The notes under the pieces: model-generated | What the model was told of the DNA's origin: nothing | Databases searched by the model: none | What the model saw: only the letters and a program-made list of their open reading frames with translations | Part shown: positions 4,188-43,438 of the stretch, piece by piece | Position numbering within the stretch: the stretch's first letter is position 1 | Layout of the letters: the number at the start of each line of letters is the position of its first letter | Origin: Minisyncoccota bacterium | Lineage (GTDB): Bacteria > Patescibacteriota > Minisyncoccia > Phycocordibacterales > Phycocordibacteraceae | Reading direction: 5' to 3' | Assembly: GCA_036405415.1 (NCBI GenBank) | Contig: DASWXP010000002.1 | Span: 427,678-491,677, forward strand | DNA: 64,000 nucleotides | Translations under genes and position numbers: made by a program

Positions 4188-5654
4188 TTATTGTACGATG
4201 ACGCGCGCGCTCTGCGTGGTGCCAGGCTCGACGACGAACGGGATACTCGGCGTAGACGTCGAGAACGTGAATCCGCTCCCGATCGTGAAGCCGTACTGGT
4301 CCCACTCGAGCGAGAGCGGACGCGATCCGGAAGCATCCGTACTAGTCGCGATCACGGTCTTATAGATGGCGGCGCCCGTACCCGTGGTTCCCTTGAGCTT
4401 CTGTCCGGTGAGCGTGAACGGGACGTTCGGCGCCGGGATCGGTCCTACGACTGACGCGAGGCTCCACTTGAGGATGCGCGGCGCGCTCGTCGGGACGCTC
4501 GTCGAGAGGCTCGCTCCGAGCGCGAGTGTCGGATAGGTCGTCGTCGACACTCCCGAGAGCGATATCGGCGAGGATGAGAATCCTGCGCTGTTTCCTGGGA
4601 GCACGCTGTCCGGGAGCGGCGCGCCACTCTGGTCGAGCACGCGCACCAGCACACTTGTGCCGCCCCCTAGCACTGTTTGGAATGACGCGTCCGTCCACCG
4701 GACCAGGTATGAAGGCGCTAAAGGAAGGCCCTGGAACGAACCTGAGGATACGTATCCGCCCATGCCGTCCCCGGCGAGCGTCATAGCATCCGTGCTATGC
4801 ACCACATTCACGAGAGCGGTTACGCGCGCCGCCGAATCGAAAGTATCTTCGGTCGATGTCGCCTGCTCTGCATAGAAAGTCTGCACCGTGAACGAGGAGA
4901 GCACGTCTATAGCGAAGGTGCTGGTCGTGGTCTGTCCCTGCGCAACCGTGAGATACCCAGGGGTTGGGTTCTGGTTCGAGCTATCGCGCGCATAGGTCTG
5001 TGCCGAAGAGTAGCCGTCCTTGGTCACGGTGACGCGATAGTCGGTTGACGTAGCCGCGCCCGGGAATATAACCGCACCGGTTGTGTCGGTGAATGTCGTC
5101 ACGTCAACGTTCGGCGAGAGGCTCGGGTTATAGATACGGACCGATGCGCCCGACACCGCGCTTCCGAGCGCGTTCACTACCTGGATCCTGAGGGTACCGC
5201 CGCCCGTCGTGCTCTCTACGCCGTTCGGAGATACGTTCGATATGATCGCCACCTCGCGTTCCTCCCCCCGGAACGTGTAGCTCGCAGACACGCGTACGCG
5301 CTTGTAGTCAGTGGTGATGCCGTTTGTGTCCGCTGAGCCGCTTCCGTCTTTTGGATCGTCCACGTACTGCACGAATGTACGGACCGCATACGGGATGCCG
5401 TTCATGGTGGTGGTCGCGTACTGCGCTACCGGACCTGCGGGAATGCCGCCGATGGTCCCCACCGTCGCGTAGTCGAGCGAGCGGATGTATTCGATCTGCG
5501 TGGTCGCTACCGCGGTCGCGCCTGCCTTCGCTTTGGCCGAGGAAGACACGAGGAGCGAGGTGCGCAGGAGCCCGAGGAGCGCGACGAACACGATGAGCAC
5601 GAGCGCAGAACCGACGATAACGTCTACGAGCGTCATACCGCGCATCGGTTGCAT
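4188..5654 (-). CDS. large pilin-like protein (pseudopilin N-terminus plus beta-sandwich, CarboxypepD_reg-like domains)
   Basis: Prepilin-like N-terminus MQPMRG|MTLVDVIVGSALVLIV followed by about 450 aa that are Thr/Ser-rich. Start chosen at the ATG at 5654; the ORF-track GTG at 5672 is an alternative. Confidence 0.55.
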   Translation of the reverse strand: MQPMRGMTLVDVIVGSALVLIVFVALLGLLRTSLLVSSSAKAKAGATAVATTQIEYIRSLDYATVGTIGGIPAGPVAQYATTTMNGIPYAVRTFVQYVDDPKDGSGSADTNGITTDYKRVRVSASYTFRGEEREVAIISNVSPNGVESTTGGGTLRIQVVNALGSAVSGASVRIYNPSLSPNVDVTTFTDTTGAVIFPGAATSTDYRVTVTKDGYSSAQTYARDSSNQNPTPGYLTVAQGQTTTSTFAIDVLSSFTVQTFYAEQATSTEDTFDSAARVTALVNVVHSTDAMTLAGDGMGGYVSSGSFQGLPLAPSYLVRWTDASFQTVLGGGTSVLVRVLDQSGAPLPDSVLPGNSAGFSSSPISLSGVSTTTYPTLALGASLSTSVPTSAPRILKWSLASVVGPIPAPNVPFTLTGQKLKGTTGTGAAIYKTVIATSTDASGSRPLSLEWDQYGFTIGSGFTFSTSTPSIPFVVEPGTTQSARVIVQ

Positions 5655-28031: not shown

Positions 28032-28315
28032 GATTCCTATCCCCAGAAGGAGGCTTGCGGCGATTAGAGCGCCAGGAATCCAGTATGCATTTCGATCGTT
28101 CGCCAGGGCGATGGGATCGGAAGGTTTAAGAGGGTCAGAAATAGGGGAACCAGGGGTATTTCAGCGTTTCTTCAGAATACAAATATGGCGTATATAGGCC
28201 ATATCTTGCGTGTCAGCCACTCACTCGATGAAGCTAGTATAAACGCTCTGAGGGAGGGGTCAACCGCCCCCAAAATAGGGTGTTGAGAGCGATATTCGGG
28301 TATAGTTGGCAAGGC

Positions 28316-30235
28316 ATGCAGCACCTCGAAGGACTCAACGACGCGCAGCGGGAAGCGGTTCTCGCGACGGACGGTCCTATATCGGTGCTCGCGGGCGCAG
28401 GGTCCGGAAAAACCCGTGTTCTCACCACCCGCATCTACCACCTCATCAAGAACGGCACCCCTGCAGACCGCATCCTTGCCGTTACCTTCACCAACAAGGC
28501 GGCCCGGGAGATGAAAGAGCGCCTCGCGCACCGCCTCGGCGGTACGCCGCTTCCGATGGTAGCTACGTTCCACGGGCTCGGCCGTGAGATCCTGCAGCGC
28601 TACGGCAGCCGCATCGGCGTGCCGCGGTACTTCACCATCTTCGACCGCGACGACTCGAAGGATGCGGTGAAGCAGGTACTCAAGGAGATGGACATCGACC
28701 CTAAGGAGCTCTCTCCAGGGTTCGTGCTCTCGCGCATCTCGAAAGAGAAGGGGGAAGGAAGAACCGCAGAAGAATTCCGCGAATCGGACGGACGCCGCAG
28801 CTTCCAAATGCGCGTGGTGTCAGAGGTGTGGCCGCGATACGAAGCGATCGTACGCAAGGAGAAAGCGCTCGATTTCGACGACCTGATCTGCCTTCCCGTA
28901 CGCCTTCTGCGCGATCACGAAGACATCCGTCAGGAAGCGGAAGCGCTCTACTCCTACATCCACGTCGACGAGTTCCAGGATACGAACGGGCTGCAGGGAA
29001 AGCTCGCGGGATACCTCGCAGCAAAGCACAAGAACCTCTTCGTGGTGGGGGACATCGATCAGACCATATACACCTGGCGCGGCGCTACCATCGAGAACCT
29101 CCTCAAATTCGAAGAGACCTACCCGAACGCGAAGACCATCGTGCTCGCGCATAACTACCGCTCCACGAAGACCATCGTCGCAGCCGGAAACCAGATAATC
29201 GAGAAGAACGAGAACCGGAAGGAGAAGCGCGCCGTAACGGACAACCCTGACGGCGAGCGCATCAAGCTGCATCTTGCGCGAAGCGCCGAGAGCGAGGCGC
29301 GCTACATCGCACGCGAAGCCAGGAAAGCGATGCGCGAAGGCGTCCCAGCAGAAGAGATCGCCGTACTGTTCCGCACGAACTTCCAGTCGCGCGCGCTCGA
29401 GGAGGCATTCCTCGGGGAAGGGGTGCCGTACAAGGTCTTAGGTACGCGGTTCTTGGACCGCAGAGAGGTCCGCGACGTGCTTGCGTGGGTGCGCCTTGCG
29501 CTTGATCCCGCACGCGAAGCGGACCGCATTCGCGCAGCCCAAGCGCCATCGCGCGGCATCGGGAAAGTGACACTTGGAAAGCTTGCTGCAGGGGACAGGG
29601 AAGCGCTTCGACCTGCAGAGCGTACGAAGGTCGCCGCGTTTGAAGAGGTCGTAGCATCGCTCCACGAAGCGGCGCTTTCGCTTACGCCGTCTGAGTTCGT
29701 GCGTCTCGTTATCGAGAAATCAGGACTCGAGGCGTCGCTCCAGAAGGGCGGGGAAGAGGATCAAGAGCGCCTCGAGAACGCGAAGGAGCTCGCAACACTC
29801 GCAAGCCGTTTCGATCACCTTTCAGGAGAGGAAGGTATCGCCGCGTTCCTCGCCGAGAGCGCGCTCGCCGGGGATCAGGACGAGATGGACGCGCCCGGGA
29901 AGAAGAATCTTCCGGGCGTGACGCTCATGACAGTGCATGCCGCGAAAGGACTCGAATTCGATACGGTATTCGTGTCCGGCATGGAAGAAGGACTGTTCCC
30001 GCACCAGGGACACGAAGGAGAGAAGCGGGACGAGGAAGAAGAGCGCCGCCTCTTCTACGTGGCTGTGACGCGCGCGAAGCGACGTCTCTATCTCACACTC
30101 GCTAAGGTGCGCCGTATCTACGGCACCGATTTCGTGTCTGAGCCGTCCTCGTTCATCCGCGACATCGACGAAGCGCTCATCGAGTACTCGGAGAGCGACG
30201 AGCCGCCGTTCGGCGAGCGCTATATTTACATATAA
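28316..30235 (+). CDS. ATP-dependent DNA helicase UvrD/PcrA family
   Basis: Helicase motifs I (AGAGSGKTRVLT), II (DEFQDTN), and III through VI. Start chosen at MQHLEGLNDAQ; the ORF-track start is 28280. Confidence 0.9.
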   Translation: MQHLEGLNDAQREAVLATDGPISVLAGAGSGKTRVLTTRIYHLIKNGTPADRILAVTFTNKAAREMKERLAHRLGGTPLPMVATFHGLGREILQRYGSRIGVPRYFTIFDRDDSKDAVKQVLKEMDIDPKELSPGFVLSRISKEKGEGRTAEEFRESDGRRSFQMRVVSEVWPRYEAIVRKEKALDFDDLICLPVRLLRDHEDIRQEAEALYSYIHVDEFQDTNGLQGKLAGYLAAKHKNLFVVGDIDQTIYTWRGATIENLLKFEETYPNAKTIVLAHNYRSTKTIVAAGNQIIEKNENRKEKRAVTDNPDGERIKLHLARSAESEARYIAREARKAMREGVPAEEIAVLFRTNFQSRALEEAFLGEGVPYKVLGTRFLDRREVRDVLAWVRLALDPAREADRIRAAQAPSRGIGKVTLGKLAAGDREALRPAERTKVAAFEEVVASLHEAALSLTPSEFVRLVIEKSGLEASLQKGGEEDQERLENAKELATLASRFDHLSGEEGIAAFLAESALAGDQDEMDAPGKKNLPGVTLMTVHAAKGLEFDTVFVSGMEEGLFPHQGHEGEKRDEEEERRLFYVAVTRAKRRLYLTLAKVRRIYGTDFVSEPSSFIRDIDEALIEYSESDEPPFGERYIYI

Positions 30236-30237
30236 GT

Positions 30238-31014
30238 ATGTTCGCGAAGAAATCCCTTGGCCAGAACTTCCTAATGCACCGGCAGACTGCTGAGCGTATC
30301 GTCGTCGCTGCCGCGCTCCCCGAGAATGCGCTCGTGCTCGAGATAGGGCCGGGAACCGGCATGCTCACGAAGGAGCTGCTGGCGGCAGGGCATCGCGTAG
30401 TTGCGGTAGAAGCGGACAATGCGCTTGCGCCGGAGCTCGAAGAAACGTTTAAGGACGAAGTGGGGCAGGGGAAGCTTCGGGTGGTGCACGGCGACATCCG
30501 GGAATTTGACCCGAAGGACGTGGGTGAGACGTACCATCTCGTCGCCAACATCCCGTACTACATAACCGGCGAGATCATCCGTCAGTTCCTCACAGCCGCG
30601 CACAAGCCCCGATCCATGACCCTCCTCGTCCAGAAGGAGGTAGCCGAGCGCATTGCGCGCTCGAAGAAGGAGAGCCTGCTTTCTCTGTCCGTTAAGGCAT
30701 ACGGAGAACCTAAATACTGCTTTACCGTACCCCGGGGCGCCTTCCGGCCCGCGCCGAACGTGGATTCGGCTGTCCTATATATAGGAAACGTGGGTTCAGG
30801 AGCGTTCAAGGGCTCAGAAGCGAGCTTTTTCGAGGTTCTGCATGTTGGGTTCGCGCATAAGCGCAAGCGCTTGGCGAAGAACCTTGCGGAGAAGTGGGGA
30901 AGCGACGCTGTGACAGCCGCGTTCGCCCGGCTCGCGCTGCCTGAAAACATCCGCGCCGAAGACCTGTCGCTCGAGCGCTGGCTCGGCCTCGCGAACGAAC
31001 TCACGCAGCCGTAG
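30238..31014 (+). CDS. rsmA: 16S rRNA (adenine1518/1519-N6)-dimethyltransferase
   Basis: GQNFL start motif, the SAM-binding EIGPGTG motif and NIPY. Confidence 0.9.
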   Translation: MFAKKSLGQNFLMHRQTAERIVVAAALPENALVLEIGPGTGMLTKELLAAGHRVVAVEADNALAPELEETFKDEVGQGKLRVVHGDIREFDPKDVGETYHLVANIPYYITGEIIRQFLTAAHKPRSMTLLVQKEVAERIARSKKESLLSLSVKAYGEPKYCFTVPRGAFRPAPNVDSAVLYIGNVGSGAFKGSEASFFEVLHVGFAHKRKRLAKNLAEKWGSDAVTAAFARLALPENIRAEDLSLERWLGLANELTQP

Positions 31015-31095
31015 GGGGTGCGTGCAATACACAACTCGTATCTTCCTTTCGTGAAGGGTTGATGATTCGTGCGTGGTACTATTTCGCTAAGGAAT

Positions 31096-32100
31096 ATGGC
31101 TCATTCTGCACGCACTCTTCGCATCATCGGCGCATCGCTGCTCGCACTCCTCATGATAGGAGGCTCGTATATGTTCTCGGGTCCTACGCCCTGGGGCAGG
31201 GTAGCCGAGGCAGAGTCGGCAGAAGAGCTCCTCAAGGCATACGCAGCCAAGGACACCGACACGGACGGGCTCCCGGACTGGCAGGAGTCGCTCTACGGCA
31301 CTGACCCTAATAACCCGGAGTCCTTCCAGGCAGGGATCAAGGATGGGGAGGCAGTGGCGCAAGGGCTCGTGCAGCCGAGGGTAGCGGTGCGTCCCGAGGA
31401 TGAGCCTATCGACCCGAGCACGATTCCGGGAACCGTCGCAGCGCCGTCCTCGGTAACCGACCGCTTCTCGCAGACGCTTCTCAAGCAGTACCTGCTCAGC
31501 CGCGGCGAGAACCCGCCGACCCCCGCCGAGATAACGGCGTTCGTCACGGACGCTCTCGCAGACCTCTCGCTGAGCTCGCAGCACCCTGACGCCTTCTCGC
31601 TTGCGGACGTACGCGCTTCCTCCGAGACCGGCACGGACGGCCTCGCCCTGTACGCCGCTCGCGCAGAAGAGGCGCTCGCTTCGCAGAATATTCGCCCTGC
31701 GAAGAATGAGCTCTTCTACTTCTCTGATGCCGTAAAAGGCAACTCGAGCGCGCTCGGAAAGATCAGGCAGATCAGCGACGCGTACGAGGCGTCGAGCCGC
31801 GCATTCATGCAGGTGCCGGTACCGGAGGAAGCGCGCAGGGCACATCTTTCGGTCGCGAACGCGCTGAACGGCATGGCTGCCATCACGGAAGATCTTGCGT
31901 CCCTTGAGACTGATCCGCTTCGTGCGCTCGTTGGCCTTGCAGCATACGACAAGCAGTCCGCAGAGCTTATCCGCGCGCTCGCTTCCATGCATAACGTGCT
32001 TTCGGCGCGCTCGGTGTCCATACCAGCAGGGCAATCCGGTGCGGAATTCCTGTTCCTCGCCGAAGAGTCAGCACGGAGCGCGGCAGCCGGCCAGCAATAA
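31096..32100 (+). CDS. membrane-anchored hypothetical protein (first gene of the plus-strand T4SS-like block)
   Basis: N-terminal TM anchor, then an acidic/Ala-rich extracytoplasmic region. The alternative start is 31069. Confidence 0.45.
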   Translation: MAHSARTLRIIGASLLALLMIGGSYMFSGPTPWGRVAEAESAEELLKAYAAKDTDTDGLPDWQESLYGTDPNNPESFQAGIKDGEAVAQGLVQPRVAVRPEDEPIDPSTIPGTVAAPSSVTDRFSQTLLKQYLLSRGENPPTPAEITAFVTDALADLSLSSQHPDAFSLADVRASSETGTDGLALYAARAEEALASQNIRPAKNELFYFSDAVKGNSSALGKIRQISDAYEASSRAFMQVPVPEEARRAHLSVANALNGMAAITEDLASLETDPLRALVGLAAYDKQSAELIRALASMHNVLSARSVSIPAGQSGAEFLFLAEESARSAAAGQQ

Positions 32101-32106
32101 AAGAGT

Positions 32107-33558
32107 ATGCGAAACCTTCTACCCCAGACCATTGCGACCCTCGCGCTTGCTTTTGTGTTACTCAGTCCAAGCGCTGCACATGCGGTAGCGGGCCCGGTTG
32201 TAGAGGTGGGTCCTGCGCTCGTCACGCAGAAGCTCACCCTCATCGAAAGCGGCATAAGCGCCGTGAAGAACGCCGCATCGGTCACGAAGGAATACATCCT
32301 CGACACGCTTGCCTGGGAGGTCGCGAACATGGCGATCGAATCCATAACCGCAAGCACGGTCAATTGGATAAATTCCGGGTTCCAGGGGTCTCCTGCGTTC
32401 GTCACCGATCTTCAGCAGAACCTCCGCGGCGTTGACGACGCTATCGCGGCGCGATTCTTCGAGGAGCTCTCGAACCAGGAGATCGAGACGACGCCTTTCC
32501 AGGACCGTGTGCTCGATGCGGTACGGCTCGGCTATTACCTGCGCACCAGCCCTGAATCTTTCTACACGCGCTACCCGAACACGCTCAGCGCCGTGAGCGA
32601 CAACCCGAGCGCCTTCCTGGCAGGGGATTTCAGTCAGGGAGGCTGGGACGCCTGGTTCCAGACGGTTATGAACCCGTCGAACAATCCGCTCAGCGCGCTA
32701 GACCTCATCAACCGCGAGCTCGAAGATGCGGTTTCGTCTGGCACCGGCACCAGGCTCCAGGAGCTCTCCTGGAACCGCGGCTTCTTGCAGTGGTGCGGCG
32801 ATGAGATCTCCGGCGAACAGGATGCTGGAGAGCAGCAGACGCTCGCGCTCGGACAGACCGACCAGTGTGTCGGGAAGAAGACGAGGACTCCAGGCGTCGT
32901 TATACAAGAGCAGCTCAATCAGGCGGTGGGTTCGGGCATGGAGCGTCTTACGGTCGCGGATGATTTCAATGAGATAATCGGCGCACTCCTCAACCAGCTC
33001 GCGCTCCAGGTGCTCGGGGGAGGGAATGGAGGAGGCCTCGTCGGTGCGAGTCGACCTTCTGCCGGCGGCGGCGCTTCATTCATAGATTCAACACGCGGCC
33101 AGGGCTCGGGTTCCGGTGCAGGACTCAGCGCATCGTTCCTCGCCACCATACAGAACCAGCGCACTCAGGTCGAACGGTTCCAGGCGAACTGGACGAAGAT
33201 CCGCGGTGCTGCTGAAGCAGCAGCACAGCAGTGTGGATCAAACGGAACACCTGACGCGCAGGCGGCGCTTGATAGGGCAGGTGCGCAGCTCGTGCGCGCA
33301 GCAGACGCGCTCGCTGCCATCGCTGAGCTCGAAGCGGATATCAGTGAGGCAAATGCCGAAGGCGGAAACCAGTCCGCAGCGCTTGCAGGTATCTCAAGCA
33401 GGTACGGCACACTCATAAACACGAACGTGCTTCCGACACCGGAGGAGATATCTGAGGCTGAGAACGGGGCACAGGACACGGGTGATGCCGACCCAGGATC
33501 CCTGTACAGCCAGTTGATGCGCCAGTCTTCGTCGTTGTCCTGCCGTGCGGATACTTAG
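32107..33558 (+). CDS. secreted hypothetical protein
   Basis: Signal peptide ending AHA, Gly/Ser-rich central region and coiled-coil. Confidence 0.5.
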   Translation: MRNLLPQTIATLALAFVLLSPSAAHAVAGPVVEVGPALVTQKLTLIESGISAVKNAASVTKEYILDTLAWEVANMAIESITASTVNWINSGFQGSPAFVTDLQQNLRGVDDAIAARFFEELSNQEIETTPFQDRVLDAVRLGYYLRTSPESFYTRYPNTLSAVSDNPSAFLAGDFSQGGWDAWFQTVMNPSNNPLSALDLINRELEDAVSSGTGTRLQELSWNRGFLQWCGDEISGEQDAGEQQTLALGQTDQCVGKKTRTPGVVIQEQLNQAVGSGMERLTVADDFNEIIGALLNQLALQVLGGGNGGGLVGASRPSAGGGASFIDSTRGQGSGSGAGLSASFLATIQNQRTQVERFQANWTKIRGAAEAAAQQCGSNGTPDAQAALDRAGAQLVRAADALAAIAELEADISEANAEGGNQSAALAGISSRYGTLINTNVLPTPEEISEAENGAQDTGDADPGSLYSQLMRQSSSLSCRADT

Positions 33559-33561
33559 GCT

Positions 33562-36096
33562 ATGCGAGGATTGCTCCGCATATCACTGATCTTCGTCGCA
33601 CTGCTGCTAGTGGGCGCACAGGATGTTCATGCTTTTTCCGGCATTCCGGCCATAGATGCACAGGTGACACAGCAACAGCTCCAAGCAATAGGAACTACTT
33701 GTTCAAGTGCTCAAGGGGCACAGAAAACACGAGGAGCGTTCGGCGAACGGGGTACCGGCACGAAGGACTCTTGTATTGCAGAGGATGATGATCACAGGAT
33801 TTTCTGTAGATACAGCTCCGCGAGCGGACAGTACAGAGATGCCGAGTATTGCCAAATAACCTATAAAGACATTCAGCCTCCTGCAGAGAACACGAAGACC
33901 GTAGACGTGAACCTGCTTAACGTGACCGGCGGCGGCGTTGACCAAGACGTAACCACACAGCAAGAAGCCGACAGTTCCGGGCAGGTGGCCTCAGCCCCAA
34001 AGTCTTGTAGCGCATTCGATATCGCAGCATGTATCCGCGCGCTCCCGGGGATGCTCTTCGTGGCGCTCGGATTCATATTCCTCACGATCTCGGGACTCAT
34101 CCTGTTCTTGGCGGGAACGCTCTTCAACTGGGTGGTACTGCGCACAGTGTTCCAGTTCGGGGAGTATTTCGGCACGTCCGAAGGCATGCTCGTGGCGTGG
34201 GGTGTGGTGCGCGACATCGCGAACATAGGCCTTCTCTTCGGCTTCATCCTCATGGGCGTCCTGCTCATCCTGAACGTCGACGGGGGAGGGCACGGGCATG
34301 GGCACGGAGGCGGCATCAGCGCCAAGAAGGCGATACCGCGCCTAATCATCTTCGCGGTGCTCCTCAACTTCAGCCTCTTCACAACGCAGTTCGTCGTTGA
34401 TATCGCGAACGCGTTCGGCTCCACCTTCACGACCCTGGCGGGCGACACAGAGTGCGAAGCGGGCGTCTCGGGAGGAACAGGAGGGTCAGAGAGCCTCGAG
34501 GATTGCGCCGTGAAGACCGGCATCTCAGGAAAGATCCTCGCTGCGACCGGCATAACCAAGATCAACGACCTGGACGCCGCGAAAGAAGGCATCGAGATGT
34601 TCTTCAACAGGACGTATCAGTACGCCACGTCGCTCATGATGCTTTCCGTCTTCGTGCTCATAACCGCTATGGTGCTGCTCGCGGGCGCGGTCATGTTGGT
34701 CATACGCGTCGTCGTGCTCTCGTTCCTTATGGTGACGTCGCCTATCGGGTTCGCTGGTATGGTGATACCGGGACTGTCGGGCATCGCGCAGAAGTGGTGG
34801 GACACCCTTATACACCAGGCATTCTTCGCTCCGGTGTACCTGCTGCTTATCTTCATCAGCATCAAGCTCACCGAAGGCCTCATCGGCAACGGCAACAACC
34901 TCACGAACGCTATCATCGGGAACCAGGGCGTGGGCACCGCGGGGAACGTCCAGGTCGTGATGATCTATGCGATTGTTATCGGCTTCATGATCGCCTCGCT
35001 CGTAGCTGCCCAGAAGATGGGCGCGATGGGCGCGAAGTTCGCTACGAGCTCGGCAGCTGCCCTTACGGTCGGCAGCGCAGGATTTGTCGGAAGGAGAACG
35101 CTCGGTGTGGGCTCTGAGATGGCTGCTAAGCGAATCGCCCAGTCCTCATGGGCGCGCAATAATGGCTTCGGGAGCAGGACCGCATACAACCTCTTCAACA
35201 AGGGAGCCACATCGAGCTTCAGCCTCCGCAACGGCCTTGGCGGCGCGGCTAAGGGCATGGGTCTCGACATGGGTAAGGCTAGCAAGGACGTTTCGCATGG
35301 CATACATGGCATCGTAGAAAAGGAAGTAAAGGCGCGAAAGGAGTTCGCGGACAAGGGAATCAAGCAGACGGGTGCAGAGGTGGCGCAAGAGAATGCGCTC
35401 AAGGACGAGAAGGAGCAGTTGAAATACTACAAGAGCGCCGCTCAGGAACAGGCCGCACGAGACAAGGATACTGATGAGGCTCCTATCAAAGCACAGGAGA
35501 ACGCCTACAAGGCCATGGCGGACGCCCGCACTGAAGCTATTGAAAGTAAGAAGAGGGGAATCGCCTCACTTATCAAAGCAGGCGGTGGCGGTGATGCGCT
35601 TAAGCGCGAAGAAGAGGCGCTTGAAGCCCTCGAAGAGGCACATGCTCAGGCTTCTGCAACGGAGGCGGCAGATATCGCGGCGAGGAAGCAGCTCCTCGAC
35701 GAGCGGCAGGCTCGCTATCAGCAGACGATCAAGGGATACGATGACCGCAGCAAGCAGATCGATCGCGAGATCAGTGGGTACGAGGAGTTCGACCCTGCAA
35801 CCCGCAAGATGGTCTGGCGTCCTGGCGTCTCTCAAGATTCAGCACGGCGTACATACGGCGAAGCCATCAAGGCGCAACACGGTCTTCCTTGGCCGTCAGT
35901 GGGTCACCACGTGAACGAAGAAGCGGCCGCTGACATCATCAAGAAGCTCAAGAAGAGCAAGCGTGACAAGCTCATCGATGCGCTCAAGGAGAACGCGAAG
36001 GACGAAGAGAAGGAAGAGAAGAAGGATGATCATGGAGGAGGAGATGACCACGGAAAGGGTGGCGACAAGGGTGGTGGCGGACATGCACCTCACTAG
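33562..36096 (+). CDS. VirB6/TrbL-like polytopic membrane protein with a long charged C-terminal tail
   Basis: Signal peptide, a Cys-containing periplasmic domain, at least six TM helices, then a roughly 300-aa coiled-coil/charged tail ending in a Gly/His-rich stretch. The assignment rests on topology and operon context, not a motif match. Confidence 0.45.
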   Translation: MRGLLRISLIFVALLLVGAQDVHAFSGIPAIDAQVTQQQLQAIGTTCSSAQGAQKTRGAFGERGTGTKDSCIAEDDDHRIFCRYSSASGQYRDAEYCQITYKDIQPPAENTKTVDVNLLNVTGGGVDQDVTTQQEADSSGQVASAPKSCSAFDIAACIRALPGMLFVALGFIFLTISGLILFLAGTLFNWVVLRTVFQFGEYFGTSEGMLVAWGVVRDIANIGLLFGFILMGVLLILNVDGGGHGHGHGGGISAKKAIPRLIIFAVLLNFSLFTTQFVVDIANAFGSTFTTLAGDTECEAGVSGGTGGSESLEDCAVKTGISGKILAATGITKINDLDAAKEGIEMFFNRTYQYATSLMMLSVFVLITAMVLLAGAVMLVIRVVVLSFLMVTSPIGFAGMVIPGLSGIAQKWWDTLIHQAFFAPVYLLLIFISIKLTEGLIGNGNNLTNAIIGNQGVGTAGNVQVVMIYAIVIGFMIASLVAAQKMGAMGAKFATSSAAALTVGSAGFVGRRTLGVGSEMAAKRIAQSSWARNNGFGSRTAYNLFNKGATSSFSLRNGLGGAAKGMGLDMGKASKDVSHGIHGIVEKEVKARKEFADKGIKQTGAEVAQENALKDEKEQLKYYKSAAQEQAARDKDTDEAPIKAQENAYKAMADARTEAIESKKRGIASLIKAGGGGDALKREEEALEALEEAHAQASATEAADIAARKQLLDERQARYQQTIKGYDDRSKQIDREISGYEEFDPATRKMVWRPGVSQDSARRTYGEAIKAQHGLPWPSVGHHVNEEAAADIIKKLKKSKRDKLIDALKENAKDEEKEEKKDDHGGGDDHGKGGDKGGGGHAPH

Positions 36097-36108
36097 TACA
36101 ATGCACCT

Positions 36109-36858
36109 ATGGATACCCCCGAGGAACTTGATGACGCAGATGTGAGTGCCGCCGTCGCTTCGGCGATGCGTGACCTGCCTAAGCCGGTACGCGATTTCCT
36201 CAAGAGCGATGAGCGCGACGTGGTGGTACGCGACCTGTCTGCGAAGTACAACCTCCATGTAGACCAGGCAGGGGAGTTCGAGCGCGCGTTCATACTCATG
36301 CTGCTCGGCGTCGAGCGTCCTGAGGAATTTATGGCATCGCTTTCAGCGACCGGACTAACTGCTGACGTCATCAACGGCCTGGCAACGGACCTTAATGAGC
36401 GGGTGTTCACTCCGTTGCGGGACGCCGAGCGCTTGGCAGCAACCACCCCGGTACCCGTTCCGCCAAAGAAGCCTGAGCCGATCCCGCCGCCTGCGCTCGA
36501 CTACCAGCCAGCGCAGACCCTTCCAGGGTCGCCGGTCCCAGCTCCCATGCCCGCGCTCGCTGTTGCTCCACAGGCGCCCGTTGCGCAGCAGCATATCGTA
36601 CATGCGATGCCAGAGACGCATCAGGCAGGGTGGCATCCAGCAGCGGCAGTTCACATATTCGTTCCCACACACCAGGCCATGCCTCAGCCGGTTCCTGTAG
36701 CTGCGACCCCTGTTCCTGTACAGCCTGAGCCGGCGCCAGTTGTACCTGCTGCGCCCGCACCCGCACCTGAGGTTCCTGTGGCAGCAGAGGTGGTGGTATC
36801 GCAACCTCCTCCTATAACGAAGAGTTACGGCGCTGATCCGTATCGCGAACCGATTTAA
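36109..36858 (+). CDS. Pro-rich hypothetical protein
   Basis: Globular N-terminal 120 aa, then a PxP-rich low-complexity region. Confidence 0.4.
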   Translation: MDTPEELDDADVSAAVASAMRDLPKPVRDFLKSDERDVVVRDLSAKYNLHVDQAGEFERAFILMLLGVERPEEFMASLSATGLTADVINGLATDLNERVFTPLRDAERLAATTPVPVPPKKPEPIPPPALDYQPAQTLPGSPVPAPMPALAVAPQAPVAQQHIVHAMPETHQAGWHPAAAVHIFVPTHQAMPQPVPVAATPVPVQPEPAPVVPAAPAPAPEVPVAAEVVVSQPPPITKSYGADPYREPI

Positions 36859-36905
36859 CCAACCGCGCGCGATGCTCGTGCGCAGCATCGGGTATACTGA
36901 TAGCG

Positions 36906-37319
36906 ATGGAGTACCAGGTCCCGCAGTTCATTGAGGTCGAAGACAAGATCTTCGGACCGTTCACGCTCAAGCAGTTCGTATACGTCGCGGGCGGGGTAGG
37001 GCTCTGCGCGATCCTTCTCCTGTACTTGCCGCTCATCGTCGGCATCTTCCTCGCGATTCCGGTAGCCGCGTTCACCGCTGCGCTCGCGTTCTACAAGATT
37101 AACAACAAGCCGTTCGTAGATATTCTCGAAGCCGGCTTCAACTACTACATCGGCAACCGGCTGTATCTCTGGAAGAAGGAGCAGCCCCAGGCGCCGGCAG
37201 CACCTACGATACAGGCTCCCGTAACACCGACAGACACACAGAAGCTCGGCCTTACCCAAGGAAAGCTCAAGGACCTCGCGTGGTCTCTAGATATCCAGGA
37301 TAGGGAGCCTGGCGCATAA
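36906..37319 (+). CDS. PrgI-family (VirB3-like) small membrane protein
   Basis: N-terminus VPQFIEVEDKIFGPFTLKQFVYVAGG and two TM helices, the typical PrgI signature. It lies immediately upstream of the VirB4 ATPase. Confidence 0.6.
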   Translation: MEYQVPQFIEVEDKIFGPFTLKQFVYVAGGVGLCAILLLYLPLIVGIFLAIPVAAFTAALAFYKINNKPFVDILEAGFNYYIGNRLYLWKKEQPQAPAAPTIQAPVTPTDTQKLGLTQGKLKDLAWSLDIQDREPGA

Positions 37320-37324
37320 CCCGT

Positions 37325-37954
37325 ATGTCTCCGACCAAGACCACCCAGTCGTTCGTACCGGTGAAGGAAGTGCGCAACGGCGTGATTGTCCTTAAGAATG
37401 ACGGTTACCGCGCTGTCCTGATGTGTTCTTCGATAAACTTCGCGCTTAAGGGCGAAGACGAGCAGCGCGCCATCATCGGCGGATTCCAGAGCCTCCTTAA
37501 CACGCTCGATTTCTCGATCCAGATCGTCGTCCATTCGCGCAAGACTGATATCCGCCCGTACCTCGCCCTCCTTGAGACGCGCATGCAGGACCAGACCACG
37601 GAGCTTATGCGCCTGCAGCTTCGCGAGTACATCCAGTTCATCCGCAACTTCATCGATTCGAGCGACATCATGTCGAAGCTCTTCTACGTCGTGGTGCCGT
37701 ACACCCCGGGGGCAGGGGGTATCGTGAAGCAGGCCGCGCCGCTCTTCGGCGGGAAGCCTGTCCCCCAGGGACAAGGCCAGGGTTCGTTCGAGGAGCACCG
37801 CGTACAGCTCGAGCAGCGCATGGCGCTGGTCGTCTCAGGCCTCGCCTCAAGCGGCGTGCGTGCGGTGCCGCTTGGAACCGAGGAGATCATCGAGCTCCTG
37901 TACCGATCTTTCAACCTCTCAGAGCTCGAGAATCCTATCCACCTAGCCGCATAG
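37325..37954 (+). CDS. VirB4/TrbE-family ATPase, N-terminal segment (ends at in-frame TAG)
   Basis: N-terminal VirB4 signature VPVKEVRNGVIVLKNDGYRAVLMCSSINFALKGEDEQ. It is in the same frame as the following ORF, separated only by TAG-CCT. Confidence 0.65.
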   Translation: MSPTKTTQSFVPVKEVRNGVIVLKNDGYRAVLMCSSINFALKGEDEQRAIIGGFQSLLNTLDFSIQIVVHSRKTDIRPYLALLETRMQDQTTELMRLQLREYIQFIRNFIDSSDIMSKLFYVVVPYTPGAGGIVKQAAPLFGGKPVPQGQGQGSFEEHRVQLEQRMALVVSGLASSGVRAVPLGTEEIIELLYRSFNLSELENPIHLAA

Positions 37955-37957
37955 CCT

Positions 37958-39784
37958 ATGGCACTCCTTGATTTCCTCGGAAAGAATAAGAAAGGGAACG
38001 ACGCGCCGGCTATAGCGCCGGTGCTTCCGAAGGATATCTACGCGGAAGGGGAGCTCCAGCTTGCGGACGCGATCGCGCCGGCCGCGCTCAAGGTAGGTCC
38101 GCGCGAGCTTGAGCTCGGCGAGAAGGTCTCGCGCTCGTTCTACACCATCTCGTATCCGCGCTTCTTGGTAGACAGCTGGTTCACCCCGATCATTAACCTC
38201 GACAAGGTGTTCGATGTCTCTATCTTCATCCACCCAGTGGAGACCGGCTCCGCATTGCGCGGCTTCCAGAAGAAGGTAGCGGAGATCGAGAGCCAGATCG
38301 CTGACCGCGAGGAGAAGGGCCTCGTCCGCGATCCGATGCTCGATACCGCGTATCGCGACCTCGAACAGCTCCGCGACCAGCTGCAGCAGGCCGAGGAGCA
38401 TATCTTCGAGGTAGGTTTGTACATAACGATATACGGAAGCTCCAAGGAGGAGCTCGACAAGATCGAGGCGGATGTCCGCGGCATCCTCGACGCGAAGCTG
38501 GTCTACACGAAGCCTGCCTTGTTCCAGCAGGAGCAGGGCTTCCGCTCCACGCTTCCGCTTGCGAACGACGAGCTCCAGGTTACCTCGAAGCTTAATTCCT
38601 CGCCGCTTTCCTCCATATTCCCGTTCGTCTCCTTCGACCTCACCTCAGACCGCGGCATCCTCTATGGCATCAACCGCCATAACGCGTCGTTGATCCTCTT
38701 CGACCGCTTCTCGCTCGAGAACTACAACTCCGTGGTATTCGCGAAGTCTGGTTCAGGCAAGTCGTACGCCGTGAAGCTCGAGATTCTCCGTTCGCTCATG
38801 TTCGGGACTGATGTCATCGTCATCGATCCGGAGCGCGAGTATGAGAACCTCGCACAGGCGACCGGCGGACGCACCTTCAACATTTCGCTTTCGTCTGAGC
38901 ATCACATCAACCCGTTCGACCTTCCGGCGGTGAAGGAGGATGAGGAGCCGGGGGACATCCTGCGCTCGAACATCATCAACCTCGTAGGACTCTTCCGCAT
39001 CATGCTTGGCGGCCTCTCGCCTGAAGAGGATGCGATCATCGACCGCGCAATCACCGAGACCTATGCGCTCAAAGACATCACCGGGGATGCCGACTTCACA
39101 GGAATCGAGCCGCCGCTCCTCTCTGACTTCGAGAACGTGCTCTCTGGCATGGAAGGCTCTGAATCGCTCGTAACGCGCCTTTCCAAGTACACGCACGGCA
39201 CCTGGGCCGGCTTCATCAACCAGCCGACCAACATCGACATAAACAAGCAGTTCATCGTCTTCTCGGTGCGCGACATGGAGGACGAGCTGAAGCCGGTGGC
39301 GATGTACATCATCACGCACTACATCTGGAACGCGGTGCGCAAGGACCTCCGTAAGCGCTTGCTTATCATCGACGAGGCCTGGTGGATGATGAAGTCGGAC
39401 GATACGGCGTCGTTCCTCTACAGCCTCGCGAAGCGCGGCCGCAAGTACTATCTCGGCGTCGCTACCATCACGCAGGACGTGGAAGACTTCCTTCGCTCGC
39501 CCTACGGCCGTCCGATCCTCACGAACTCGTCGATGCAGCTTCTCTTGAAGCAGTCACCGACCACCATCAACATACTCAAGGAAACCTTCAACCTTACGGA
39601 CGAAGAGAAGTTCCTGCTCCTTGAGTCCGGGGTGGGGGAGGGGCTCTTTTTCGCCGGCCTCAAGCATGTGGCTATCAAGGTGGTCGCCTCCTACACCGAA
39701 GACCAGATCATCACCTCAGACCCGTCGCAGCTCCTTCAGATCCGCCGCGAGAAGGAACGGATGGATCAAGGGCTTTCGGCATAG
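37958..39784 (+). CDS. VirB4/TrbE-family T4SS ATPase, C-terminal ATPase segment
   Basis: Walker A VVFAKSGSGKSY, Walker B LLIIDEAWWM, and CagE_TrbE_VirB-type region. Confidence 0.85.
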   Translation: MALLDFLGKNKKGNDAPAIAPVLPKDIYAEGELQLADAIAPAALKVGPRELELGEKVSRSFYTISYPRFLVDSWFTPIINLDKVFDVSIFIHPVETGSALRGFQKKVAEIESQIADREEKGLVRDPMLDTAYRDLEQLRDQLQQAEEHIFEVGLYITIYGSSKEELDKIEADVRGILDAKLVYTKPALFQQEQGFRSTLPLANDELQVTSKLNSSPLSSIFPFVSFDLTSDRGILYGINRHNASLILFDRFSLENYNSVVFAKSGSGKSYAVKLEILRSLMFGTDVIVIDPEREYENLAQATGGRTFNISLSSEHHINPFDLPAVKEDEEPGDILRSNIINLVGLFRIMLGGLSPEEDAIIDRAITETYALKDITGDADFTGIEPPLLSDFENVLSGMEGSESLVTRLSKYTHGTWAGFINQPTNIDINKQFIVFSVRDMEDELKPVAMYIITHYIWNAVRKDLRKRLLIIDEAWWMMKSDDTASFLYSLAKRGRKYYLGVATITQDVEDFLRSPYGRPILTNSSMQLLLKQSPTTINILKETFNLTDEEKFLLLESGVGEGLFFAGLKHVAIKVVASYTEDQIITSDPSQLLQIRREKERMDQGLSA

Positions 39785-39787
39785 GCC

Positions 39788-40312
39788 ATGGATAAGAAGC
39801 ACACTATTGGGAGCGTGAACGCCGGGTTCATGATCGTGACTGCGCTTGCGATAGACGGTACGCAGCTTCTCCTGACCGCAAGCGTATTCCTCATCCCGCT
39901 CACCTGGCTCTTCTCGTTCATCGCGTTCATCTTGTTCCCGCTCTGGTTCATGCTCTCGGGCGTTAAGTACGGGGGCGGGGCAGGGGGACGCAGGCTCCTT
40001 ATCATGCTCGCGAGCGCCATCGCGGAGATAGCCCCTCTCATAAACGGGCTTCCTGCTTTGAGCGCAGGCGTGATAGGAACGGTGATACAGACCAGGATCG
40101 AGGACGCGAGAAGGAATGCGGGCGGGAAAGTCACACCGAAAACCGCGCTCGCAGCCGCACGCATGGTCCGCATGCAGCGAGCAGCGCTCGCCCGACAGGA
40201 CGCAGCGCGTCGGGAGCGCGAAGCAACACAAGTAGCACGTCACACGCCAGCGAACGACAACGTTCCTCCGGCCGCAAACGATAACGGTTTTGAGGAGCGT
40301 AGAGCAGCCTAG
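39788..40312 (+). CDS. three-TM hypothetical membrane protein
   Basis: Hydrophobic N-terminal 100 aa and a basic, Ala/Arg-rich C-terminus. Confidence 0.45.
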   Translation: MDKKHTIGSVNAGFMIVTALAIDGTQLLLTASVFLIPLTWLFSFIAFILFPLWFMLSGVKYGGGAGGRRLLIMLASAIAEIAPLINGLPALSAGVIGTVIQTRIEDARRNAGGKVTPKTALAAARMVRMQRAALARQDAARREREATQVARHTPANDNVPPAANDNGFEERRAA

Positions 40313-40360
40313 CTTACCCCCGTCCGTACGCGATCTCAGTGCTGCCTGGCGGTATATACT

Positions 40361-41344
40361 GTGCATATGATACGAAGCGCGCTCATCGCACTAGCTCTTC
40401 TTCTTGGAGGAGTCGCTCATGCCCAGGCACTTCCCGGAGCCGAGCCTCTCACGGTCTTGCTTTCTCCTGAGCATCCCCGTCCATACCAATCCTTTCAGGT
40501 CTCTCCGCGGAGCTCCCTCATCGACCTCTCCGCAAGTACGGTCCGCGTGTCCGTAGACGGCACCCAGGTGTATGAAGGGAGCGGAACGCAAGCGGCGACC
40601 GTCCGTGCCGGAGCTCTCGGAACCCGCACGAATGTCACGGTTAGCGTGACTGACGCGGCAGGGAAGGTATACACCAAGCAGATCTCAGTGCGGCCTGCCG
40701 AGGTCTCGCTCGTACTCGAGCCTGCATCGACCGCGCATCCTTTCTATAAGGGCGGCGGGTTGGTGGCGTCAGAAGGGACGGTCCGTCTCATCGCGCTAGC
40801 AGACCTGCGCACGTCTGCTGGTGTCCGTATCCCGCCACAGAACCTCGTGTATACCTGGAGGCTAGGAGATCGTGTCCTTACGGACGCCTCAGGGATAGGG
40901 AAGTCGGCGCTTACTGCCACCGCTCCGGTCCGCTACCGGAACGCTGACATCAGCGTAACGGTGTCGAGCGCTGACAGCTCGCTCGTGGCAGAGGCGCGGA
41001 CCCTGGTCTCGGCCGTGGATCCTGTCGCTCGCGTCTACCAGAACGATCCGCTGCTCGGCCCGAACTTCGATATGGCGCTCGCGAGCCGGTTCTCTATGCC
41101 TGACACGGAAGCCACCTTCCGTGCCGTCGGGTACTTCTTTGCCGTTCCGCCTGTGTTCTCTTGGAACGTGAACAGCTCGTCCGGGGGCAGCGACAAGGAC
41201 GTTACGGTTCGCGCGACCGGAAACGGTACCGGCACCGCCCGGCTATCCCTTACTGCTACCGAGTCTGAATCCCGAAGGAGCGCCTCGTCCGCATTCACGG
41301 TTGATTTCGGCTCCGCCCGCGGCTTTGGATTCTTCGGCCTATAA
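40361..41344 (+). CDS. secreted hypothetical protein (beta-rich, Ser/Thr/Val-rich)
   Basis: Signal peptide ending AHAQA. Confidence 0.45.
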   Translation: MHMIRSALIALALLLGGVAHAQALPGAEPLTVLLSPEHPRPYQSFQVSPRSSLIDLSASTVRVSVDGTQVYEGSGTQAATVRAGALGTRTNVTVSVTDAAGKVYTKQISVRPAEVSLVLEPASTAHPFYKGGGLVASEGTVRLIALADLRTSAGVRIPPQNLVYTWRLGDRVLTDASGIGKSALTATAPVRYRNADISVTVSSADSSLVAEARTLVSAVDPVARVYQNDPLLGPNFDMALASRFSMPDTEATFRAVGYFFAVPPVFSWNVNSSSGGSDKDVTVRATGNGTGTARLSLTATESESRRSASSAFTVDFGSARGFGFFGL

Positions 41345-41347
41345 CCT

Positions 41348-42217
41348 ATGAAATACTTTCTCTTCGCCCTCGCGCTCCTGACCCTTCCAGCCCTCGCGTT
41401 CGCACAGGAGACCGGTTTCGTGCCGCTCACGAACACCCCGTTCATCGAGCAGGCAGGGAACGCGGTTGATCTTCCGAACATGCTCAACCAGCTCTACCGG
41501 CTCTGCATCGGCATCGCGGCGGTCGTGGCGGTGCTCCAGATCATGCGCGCGGGCATCATGTACATGGGAGGGGACAGCGTGACCGAGAAGAAGGAGGCAA
41601 AGAACCTTATCGCGCTCTCTATCGGCGGGCTCGTGCTGGTCCTTTCTCCGGTTATCGTGTTCTCGGTTATCAACCCCGACATCCTGAGCCTCAAGATCGG
41701 CGGTATCGAGAACCTGCGCACGCAAGGCACCGGAACGACGACACAGCAGACCGCAAGCACTACGCAGACAGGGGGAGGGGGCTCTGGACAGTCCTGCCCG
41801 ACAGCACCGATCCTTATCGCAAGCAACGGCATTTGTCCGAACGGGCACGCAGAGATGCCTGCCGCGTGCGTCGCGAGCAAGTGCAGCGGCATGACGGGAG
41901 GGAAGTGCTGCTACCAGACCACTTCAGCCCAAGCACCCGCTAACCAGCCTGCGAACTACACGCCCACCGGTCCGCAGCGGTTCAAGATGGCATACAAAGA
42001 CGTCGATTTCCTCAACTCTGATCCTGCCCTGAGCGGGAGGGAGTGTGTCACATATATCGACCGGACTCTTCCTTCGCTTGAAACCTGCCAGGAAGCAGAG
42101 ATCGAGACCGGCACTCGGCTTACTGCCGACGAGAAAGAGTTTATTTTCGTGAAGCGCTGTATAAATAATGAGTTGCCGCGACACCGATTCATGGATCTTC
42201 CTACTTGCGCCTCCTAG
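41348..42217 (+). CDS. VirB2/TrbC-like pilin-like secreted membrane protein with a Cys-rich C-terminal domain
   Basis: Signal peptide, two adjacent hydrophobic helices separated by a short loop (LCIGIAAVVAVLQIM...LIALSIGGLVLVLSPVIVF), then a C-terminal domain with about 10 Cys. The call rests on topology only. Confidence 0.4.
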   Translation: MKYFLFALALLTLPALAFAQETGFVPLTNTPFIEQAGNAVDLPNMLNQLYRLCIGIAAVVAVLQIMRAGIMYMGGDSVTEKKEAKNLIALSIGGLVLVLSPVIVFSVINPDILSLKIGGIENLRTQGTGTTTQQTASTTQTGGGGSGQSCPTAPILIASNGICPNGHAEMPAACVASKCSGMTGGKCCYQTTSAQAPANQPANYTPTGPQRFKMAYKDVDFLNSDPALSGRECVTYIDRTLPSLETCQEAEIETGTRLTADEKEFIFVKRCINNELPRHRFMDLPTCAS

Positions 42218-42220
42218 ATT

Positions 42221-43438
42221 ATGAACCGACGTACTCTCTTCATCATCGCAGCCGTCATCGTCCTCATCGGGCTTGTTGTGGGTGCTATCTTCCTTTTCGG
42301 CAACAATGCCACTCTCGAGCCGGGTGTTCCTGGGAATCCCTTCGGCTCGAGTGAGGATCGCGACCCGTCCTCTTCACTTACTCCTGATGGCCAGCCGGTA
42401 CAGGGCGCAGGAACCGTCGTGGCGCCGCGCCTGATCCGCATCACGGACGTGCCGGTCGCCAAAGGGGCAGCGGCACTCTACATACCTCCGGTGCTTGGGG
42501 CGACCTCTACCGATCCCGGAACGCCCGAGGACGTCGAGATACGCTTCATTGAGCGCCAGAGCGGAAACGTGTATTCGTTCCGCGTTCATGACCGCCTCCT
42601 TACCAGGACCTCGAACCGTACGCTTCCGGGCATCCAGGACGCAGTGTGGAGCGCGGACGGTACGCGCGCATTTGCGCGCTATCTGACCAGAGGATCGGAT
42701 GGTATCGAGCGTATCGATACGTACGCACTCACGCACGACGGCTCGGAAGGGTATTTCTTGGAGCAAGGGGTCGATGCTATCGCCGTCCAGGCCTCAACCA
42801 CTGTGTTCTCGCTCCTTCCGAGCAGTTCCGGCTCCATCGGAACGCTTTCAAATACTGACGGGTCTAACGTGCGCACCCTGTTCACGTCCGCGCTCTCGCG
42901 CCTTGCGGTTTCGTTTTCCGGCGGGGATATCGTAGCTACCACAAAGGCTTCTTCGGGCCTTGATGGGTACAGCTTCCTGGTCTCTCGTGCAGACGGGTCG
43001 TTTACGCGTATCCTCGGTCCGTTCCGGGGACTTACGACACTCGCGAACGCCGAAGGCACCGCTGTCCTCTTCAGCTATGTCGACAGGAACCGGACCTATC
43101 TGCAGACCATTGATCTTGCGACGCGTGCCGTGACCGCGCTACCGCTCTCGACGCTCTCAGAGAAGTGCGTTTGGGCACCAGGAGGAAGGGCGGTGTATTG
43201 CGCAGTCCCGACCGCACTGGCAGGGAACGTTCCTGACGATTGGTACCAAGGTGCGCAGTCCTTCTCGGACCGTCTCTGGCGCATCGACCTCGACACCCGC
43301 CTCGCAACACTCGTGGTTGATCCAGGACAGGTAGCTGAGGTTGCAATCGATGCGGTAGCGCTCTCTATCGACCCAACAGCTGACGTTCTGGTATTCACGA
43401 ACAAGAAGGACGGAACCCTCTGGGTGTATGACCTCTAA
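42221..43438 (+). CDS. N-terminally anchored extracytoplasmic protein (beta-propeller-like), hypothetical
   Basis: One TM helix, then a repetitive beta-rich domain. Confidence 0.5.
   Translation: MNRRTLFIIAAVIVLIGLVVGAIFLFGNNATLEPGVPGNPFGSSEDRDPSSSLTPDGQPVQGAGTVVAPRLIRITDVPVAKGAAALYIPPVLGATSTDPGTPEDVEIRFIERQSGNVYSFRVHDRLLTRTSNRTLPGIQDAVWSADGTRAFARYLTRGSDGIERIDTYALTHDGSEGYFLEQGVDAIAVQASTTVFSLLPSSSGSIGTLSNTDGSNVRTLFTSALSRLAVSFSGGDIVATTKASSGLDGYSFLVSRADGSFTRILGPFRGLTTLANAEGTAVLFSYVDRNRTYLQTIDLATRAVTALPLSTLSEKCVWAPGGRAVYCAVPTALAGNVPDDWYQGAQSFSDRLWRIDLDTRLATLVVDPGQVAEVAIDAVALSIDPTADVLVFTNKKDGTLWVYDL

Follow-up and report, generated by a model that had tools for sequence, protein, structure and literature searches.

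Does a lone in-frame amber codon break the VirB4-family ATPase gene of a Minisyncoccota bacterium, or does it close one gene of an operon three nucleotides before the next one opens? The question is raised by a 64,000-nt stretch of assembly GCA_036405415.1 (contig DASWXP010000002.1, positions 427,678-491,677 of the forward strand; hereafter the window), in which type IV secretion system (T4SS)-like genes include two open reading frames (ORFs) of 209 and 608 codons that lie in one frame and are separated by TAG and CCT. A first-pass annotation of the window described them as a single VirB4 gene "interrupted" by the amber codon and listed four options without ranking them: a recent nonsense mutation, a sequencing or assembly error, a genuine two-polypeptide VirB4, and programmed readthrough. 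The best explanation, held here with high confidence, is that the ORFs are two ordinary adjacent genes, one TrsD-like and the other encoding the rest of VirB4, in a patescibacterial T4SS operon. They are separate cistrons divided by an ordinary stop codon, both are conserved and under selection, and their products are complementary parts of VirB4.

The junction and its conservation

The TrsD-like gene (37325..37954, + strand) opens with the ATG at 37325 and runs for 209 codons to a TAG stop at 37952-37954. The spacer CCT (37955-37957) follows, and the ATG at 37958 opens the VirB4-family ATPase gene (37958..39784, + strand), a TrsE-like ORF of 608 codons in the same frame. The junction proper, TAG plus the 3-nt spacer, occupies 37952..37957 on the + strand, and the whole amounts to 820 codons. 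The first-pass annotation was correct that the two pieces share a frame, split by TAG-CCT and then ATG, and that they sum to the VirB4 length of about 820 aa. Its statement that TAG serves as an ordinary stop elsewhere in the window also holds: TAG is the commonest terminator of 55 crude long ORFs (33, against 14 for TAA and 8 for TGA), and the eight tRNA genes of the window include no suppressor tRNA. Contigs of four separately assembled sequencing runs (SRR11449179, SRR11449181, SRR11449182, and SRR11449183; Logan) equal the window over 3.9-4.7 kb, TAG-CCT-ATG included.

Loci were taken from 80 species genomes, and the junction was measured in the 78 in which both genes were located as well as in the window (n = 79). 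All 78 species loci carry two separate genes, so the comparison with orthologues that had been proposed as a check returns a consistent split. The ATPase gene begins with ATG at a conserved M-A/S-L-L-D-F sequence in 79/79 loci, and the ATPase ORFs that are complete within the fetched loci encode 603-613 aa. TAA closes the upstream gene in 58 loci, TAG in 13, and TGA in 8. Spacers range from -14 (a 14-nt overlap) to 805 nt, with 3 nt (29 loci), 1 nt (15), and 2 nt (13) being the commonest and 66/79 loci having a spacer of at most 6 nt, while the ATPase gene stands in relative frame 0, +1, or +2 in 37, 23, and 19 loci, respectively. In L062 (4631-5349) and L068 (4607-5411), the TrsD-like and VirB4 genes are set apart by a complete unrelated gene for a 23S rRNA-intervening-sequence/four-helix-bundle protein (PF05635, E = 5e-37). 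Because stop, spacer, and frame all vary, and because another gene can be inserted at this point, the pair is not one gene read through a stop codon.

Several of these loci have features of their own. L066 is the sole species whose upstream ORF reaches 14 nt beyond the ATPase start (~4632-4645), the overlap ending in TGA, in contrast to the 1-6 nt spacers of other loci. L068 has a further ORF of 130 aa (4637-5029) with no Pfam match, and the intergenic DNA opens with TAGGC-type repeats (TAGGCTTTAGGCACTAGGCTCTAGC). L079 (DAHXMN010000149.1) is a 2-kb contig placed in a "Candidatus Woesearchaeota archaeon" bin; its TrsD-like gene, which an ATPase gene follows, shares 61% identity with that of the window, and the contig is probably patescibacterial and mis-binned.

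Both reading frames evolve as functional genes do. Against relatives at a synonymous divergence (dS) of ~0.7-2, which is near saturation, the ratio of nonsynonymous to synonymous substitution (dN/dS) is 0.03-0.13 for the 209-codon ORF and 0.03-0.07 for the ATPase ORF; both are therefore held by strong purifying selection. A homologue search with the 209-aa protein returned 3974 sequences, the best 120 of which are all stand-alone proteins of 208-214 aa, annotated with PF26593, with 100% to 68% identity from Paceibacterota/Patescibacteria assemblies. In a search of 1.8 billion cluster representatives (50% identity), 2357 families match the small protein, and the best 150 of these representatives include one protein of fusion length (P0177, 797 aa). 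Many TrsD-like representatives are 300-440 aa long, with the homologous region at the N terminus and a C-terminal extension behind it.

The spacing habit of the operon accounts for the shared frame. Among the 12 junctions of the + strand region 28280-43438, the exact arrangement of a stop, 3 nt, and an in-frame ATG occurs five times (33558/33562, 37954/37958, 39784/39788, 41344/41348, and 42217/42221), and 8/12 junctions are in frame overall. In lying next to each other in one frame, the TrsD-like and ATPase genes therefore follow the usual pattern of the operon; the logic that joins them would also "fuse" VirB4 to the next ORF at 39788. Control junctions from the relatives behave comparably: spacers between the PrgI-family gene and the TrsD-like gene are mostly 1-6 nt, with 15/80 (19%) in frame, and junctions between the ATPase gene and the gene after it have a 3-nt spacer in 13/33 cases and are in frame in 23/33 (70%). 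The nucleotides just 5' of ATG in the operon often end in CT (GCT, CCT, CACCT), which may be a preferred re-initiation context. Shine-Dalgarno-like 4-mers occur 5' of the starts of 10/55 window ORFs, a rarity that suggests a genome that largely initiates without Shine-Dalgarno motifs, and no such motif was found 5' of the ATPase gene in any of the 79 loci.

Two complementary parts of VirB4

The two proteins match different stretches of the same models. The 209-aa protein matches positions 2-102 of the 752-position CD1110 model (NF045971, E = 8.8e-6) and positions 101-233 of the 894-position VirB4 model for mycoplasma integrative and conjugative elements (ICEs; VirB4_plasma, E = 6.8e-9), whereas the 608-aa protein covers positions 183-733 and 293-893 of these models, respectively. 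This coverage does not overlap in either model, and the pieces are thus complementary rather than redundant. The 608-aa protein scores 376.3 bits with NF045971 (VirB4-like conjugal transfer ATPase, CD1110 family), for which the cut-off is 325, but it is not the single polypeptide characteristic of that family, as the N-terminal ~180 model positions fall to the separate small protein. Judged by model coverage, the pair together, and neither ORF alone, corresponds to the full length of CD1110.

The relation of the short piece to the VirB4 N terminus, which the first-pass annotation had proposed, is borne out by these N-terminal NCBIfam matches and by the predicted fold. A 36-sequence alignment served to build an AlphaFold model (mean predicted local distance difference test score, pLDDT, 82.5). 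When this model was compared with the PDB by Foldseek, the 14 best matches were all chains of R388 TrwK/VirB4 (E = 4e-4 to 5e-3, probability 1.00), and as the match after them has an E value of 0.22, TrwK is the sole significant one. At the level of sequence, phmmer with the 209-aa protein and hmmsearch with the 36-sequence profile found nothing meaningful among PDB sequences. By its model matches and predicted fold, the TrsD-like protein is a free-standing counterpart of the VirB4 N-terminal domain over its first ~200 residues.

The 608-aa protein carries Pfam P-loop_TraG, AAA_10, and DUF87 matches, and its translation contains Walker A (AKSGSGKSY) and Walker B (LLIIDEAWW) motifs. The VirB4 C-terminal domain structure 4AG5 matches it with an E value of 1.9e-44, and residues 300-741 of R388 TrwK align with its residues 129-561. 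It lacks the first ~170-180 residues of single-chain VirB4 (approximately the first 170 of TrwK) and comprises the remainder of the VirB4 N-terminal domain together with the Walker A/B ATPase domain. Single-chain VirB4 proteins, namely R388 TrwK, F TraC, and members of the CD1110 (C. difficile) and Mbov_0397 (mycoplasma ICE) families, are matched colinearly and over their whole length by the N and C pieces of the window. Unlike them, the window protein is encoded as two polypeptides, with the split inside the N-terminal region covered by Pfam TraC_F_IV.

P0177 is a natural single-chain counterpart. Its TrsD-like part (residues 7-213) and its ATPase part (residues 226-796, 57% identical to the window ATPase) are joined by ~12 residues, and the Pfam TraC_F_IV match spans the join. 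P0177 lacks the conserved M-A-L-L-D-F head of ~30 residues that begins the ATPase piece.

Size and position agree with what is expected of TrsD: at 209 aa, the stand-alone small protein falls within the ~200-230 aa range, and the window order is PrgI, the 209-aa gene, and the VirB4 ATPase gene. Precomputed annotation lists the identical protein under PF26593 "TraC-like". The locus shows the TrsD-VirB4 pairing typical of type IV secretion operons in Patescibacteria (Paceibacterota).

A proposed two-chain VirB4 and the rival explanations

The TAG is the normal terminator of the TrsD-like gene. Ribosomes ending there would probably restart at the ATG 3 nt on, a translational coupling that would yield near-equimolar chains. 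The two chains would then associate non-covalently into a VirB4-like subunit, which would dock on the PrgI/VirB3-like protein encoded upstream and hexamerize to serve the T4SS as its ATPase motor. That the two genes share a frame is a by-product of the frequent 3-nt spacer of the operon.

Several observations weigh against this account. A local Pfam-A scan of the 209-aa protein (37325-37951) returned no family at E <= 0.01, and the PF26593 label comes only from precomputed annotation of an identical protein; the disagreement between the two is a library-version discrepancy. Alignment of the 36-sequence profile with the single pSK41 TrsD sequence by hhalign is weak (60% probability, E = 8.7e-5, 165 colinear columns). 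The missing Shine-Dalgarno motif was considered as a sign of coupling and dropped, as the window-wide control is itself poor in the motif (10/55 ORFs); chain association and translational coupling are steps that we infer. Finally, the in-frame 3-nt spacer is present in every one of the ten relatives at 80% identity or more. In this clade a few ribosomes might pass the stop and produce a covalently fused full-length VirB4 beside the two chains, a product that might nucleate or control the way the two-chain ATPase assembles; this idea is given very little credence.

The options that treat the TAG as a defect fare worst. A recent nonsense mutation in a continuous 820-codon virB4, leaving an incipient pseudogene and a dead T4SS module, would fit the shared frame and the typical summed length of the ORFs, and a fused 797-aa relative does exist. 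However, the split falls at one and the same position in 78/78 species loci, where the ATG and the M-A/S-L-L-D-F start are conserved, and both pieces retain dN/dS values of 0.03-0.13 over saturating synonymous divergence. P0177, which is without the ATPase head, differs in architecture and is not what the window gene would have been before such a mutation. The likelihood of a nonsense mutation is accordingly close to nil. The same negligible likelihood attaches to a false stop made by sequencing or assembly, which has in its favor only the a priori possibility that attends a metagenome-assembled genome and which conflicts with the identical junction in four independent run assemblies and with the stop that every measured relative has there too. 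The TAG is a gene boundary and not an interruption, and the junction provides no basis for the suggestion that the T4SS-like module might be non-functional, with no sign of inactivation being seen.

Programmed readthrough or TAG recoding would produce a single 819-aa VirB4, possibly beside the separate chains. The in-frame 3-nt spacer common to those ten relatives and a certain over-representation of in-frame junctions (37/79) speak for it. Against it, 42/79 loci are out of frame or far apart, the in-frame loci mostly use TAA (31/37), which of the three stops is read through least readily, and their spacer codon is not constant. TAG also ends most long ORFs in a window that has no suppressor tRNA, and neighboring junctions that join unrelated genes have at least as high a share in frame (70% from VirB4 to the next gene, 8/12 in the operon). 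The in-frame excess was rejected as a hint of readthrough after comparison with these control junctions and the operon-wide 3-nt spacers; it arises from the general preference for 3-nt spacers and from shared ancestry. Readthrough as a conserved mechanism does not survive the variation in stop, spacer, and relative frame, and readthrough or recoding in any form is regarded as highly improbable. A further alternative accepts two genes and makes the 209-aa protein an accessory paralogue of the VirB4 N terminus, for example a regulator or adaptor, beside a self-sufficient short VirB4 of 608 aa. The C-terminal extensions of many relatives (300-440 aa) are compatible with such a role, as is the report by Quinonero-Coronel et al. 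(2025; PMC12102498) that TrsD is unlinked to virB4 in Gracilibacteria. This alternative is nevertheless unlikely, because the pieces cover non-overlapping parts of single-chain VirB4 models, the ATPase piece is without roughly the first 170 TrwK residues, the natural fusion is colinear with a TraC_F_IV match across its join, and the adjacency is very tight (spacer of at most 6 nt in 66/79 loci). The genuine two-polypeptide VirB4 is thus the only one of the four original options that stands.

The operon, its relatives, and the role of TrsD

The genes around the pair are consistent with a T4SS module. Directly 5' of the TrsD-like gene, with a 5-nt spacer, lies a gene for a PrgI-family (VirB3-like) membrane protein (36906..37319, + strand; Pfam PF12666 PrgI, E = 6.7e-10, 39.8 bits against a cut-off of 27). 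Further upstream, 33562..36096 (+ strand) encodes a large membrane protein that is possibly VirB6-like, given a weak, below-cut-off hit in NCBIfam (ICE transmembrane protein of the Mbov_0396 family, E = 1.3e-4); a Pfam scan of this product found no match. Downstream, a VirB2/TrbC-like pilin candidate is encoded at 41348..42217 (+ strand), with Pfam matches to T4SS_pilin (E = 3.3e-5) and TrbC (E = 3e-4) that are both slightly under the curated cut-offs. Genes for a UvrD-family helicase (28280-30235) and the KsgA/RsmA rRNA dimethylase (30238-31014) precede the T4SS-like genes on the same strand, and the latter begin within ~1.1 kb 3' of the KsgA/RsmA gene (from 31069 or 32107). Because these genes adjoin it, the module is taken to be chromosomal and set among housekeeping genes.

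Plasmids pSK41/pGO1 of Staphylococcus aureus (MPF_FATA T4SS) have the same order as the window, namely the VirB3-like TrsC/PrgI, TrsD, and the VirB4 ATPase. Sizes also agree, with ~210-230 aa for TrsD (227 in pSK41) and ~610-670 aa for the ATPase (672 for TrsE, which has DUF87). From residue ~35 of each protein onward, the window ATPase and pSK41 TrsE are colinear (E = 4e-39), which puts the split at the same point in both systems, and the two share a similar M..FL/F.KKK head. The pSK41 TrsD and the small protein of the window align over their full length, but with 14% identity. Being a conjugative plasmid, pSK41 encodes a relaxase and a coupling protein, whereas the window locus is chromosomal and neither component was seen among the 13 scanned ORFs of 28280-43438.

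Plasmid matches extend the comparison. A tblastn search of the small protein against plasmids returned 416 records, mostly from Bacillota. In plasmids of Pontibacillus, Clostridium perfringens, and Bacillus thuringiensis, the homologue has a gene of its own, annotated "hypothetical protein". This gene is flanked in the C. perfringens and B. thuringiensis plasmids by a "PrgI family mobile element protein" gene and a DUF87 ATPase gene, while in Pontibacillus an unnamed hypothetical gene is upstream and a CD1110-family VirB4-like ATPase gene downstream. The junctions of these Bacillota plasmids are overlaps of 11-14 nt or lie 130 nt apart, and the homologues of the small protein are 274-328 aa long. 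Haloarchaeal plasmids were matched as well (Haladaptatus, 9 records; Natrinema, 5; Natronosalvus, 3), and conjugation-like systems of archaea may thus also have the VirB4 N-terminal piece as a free-standing protein. The data support a split point that is ancient, conserved, and common to Staphylococcus pSK41, Bacillota megaplasmids, and Patescibacteria.

The two-gene layout is itself already known, being published and standard for Patescibacteria. A literature search under "split VirB4" found nothing; the term in use is TrsD. According to Quinonero-Coronel et al. (2025; PMC12102498), TrsD is remotely homologous to the VirB4 N terminus, and no other T4SS component is as abundant in Patescibacteria: 1,664 of its 2,272 homologues adjoin virB4. 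The genes listed as essential in Ca. Southlakia epibionticum ML1 include its TrsD homologue. The patescibacterial T4SS presented there and, for Ca. Southlakia epibionticum, in Wang et al. (2023) comprises the same set of VirB4, TrsD, PrgI/VirB3, a VirB6-like protein, and a VirB2-like pilin. On that basis no substantive difference separates it from the window, which is one more member. As far as they were consulted, the two papers contain no discussion of the junction (stop, spacer, frame) or of the complementarity of the pieces. They likewise do not spell out that TrsD may be the missing N-terminal subdomain of a two-chain VirB4, an idea that the present data support.

For this bacterium, a false alarm is removed: the T4SS-like module is not disabled by a nonsense codon, and its VirB4 is encoded by two genes, as is standard in Patescibacteria and in Gram-positive systems of the pGO1/pSK41 type. 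For annotation, the locus teaches that an in-frame "stop-NNN-ATG" between functionally linked ORFs of a compact, tightly packed genome is normal in an operon and is no evidence of decay or recoding. For the family, complementary coverage, the natural fusion, and the predicted fold together give TrsD, to which the literature assigns no function, a testable one as the detached N-terminal subdomain of VirB4.

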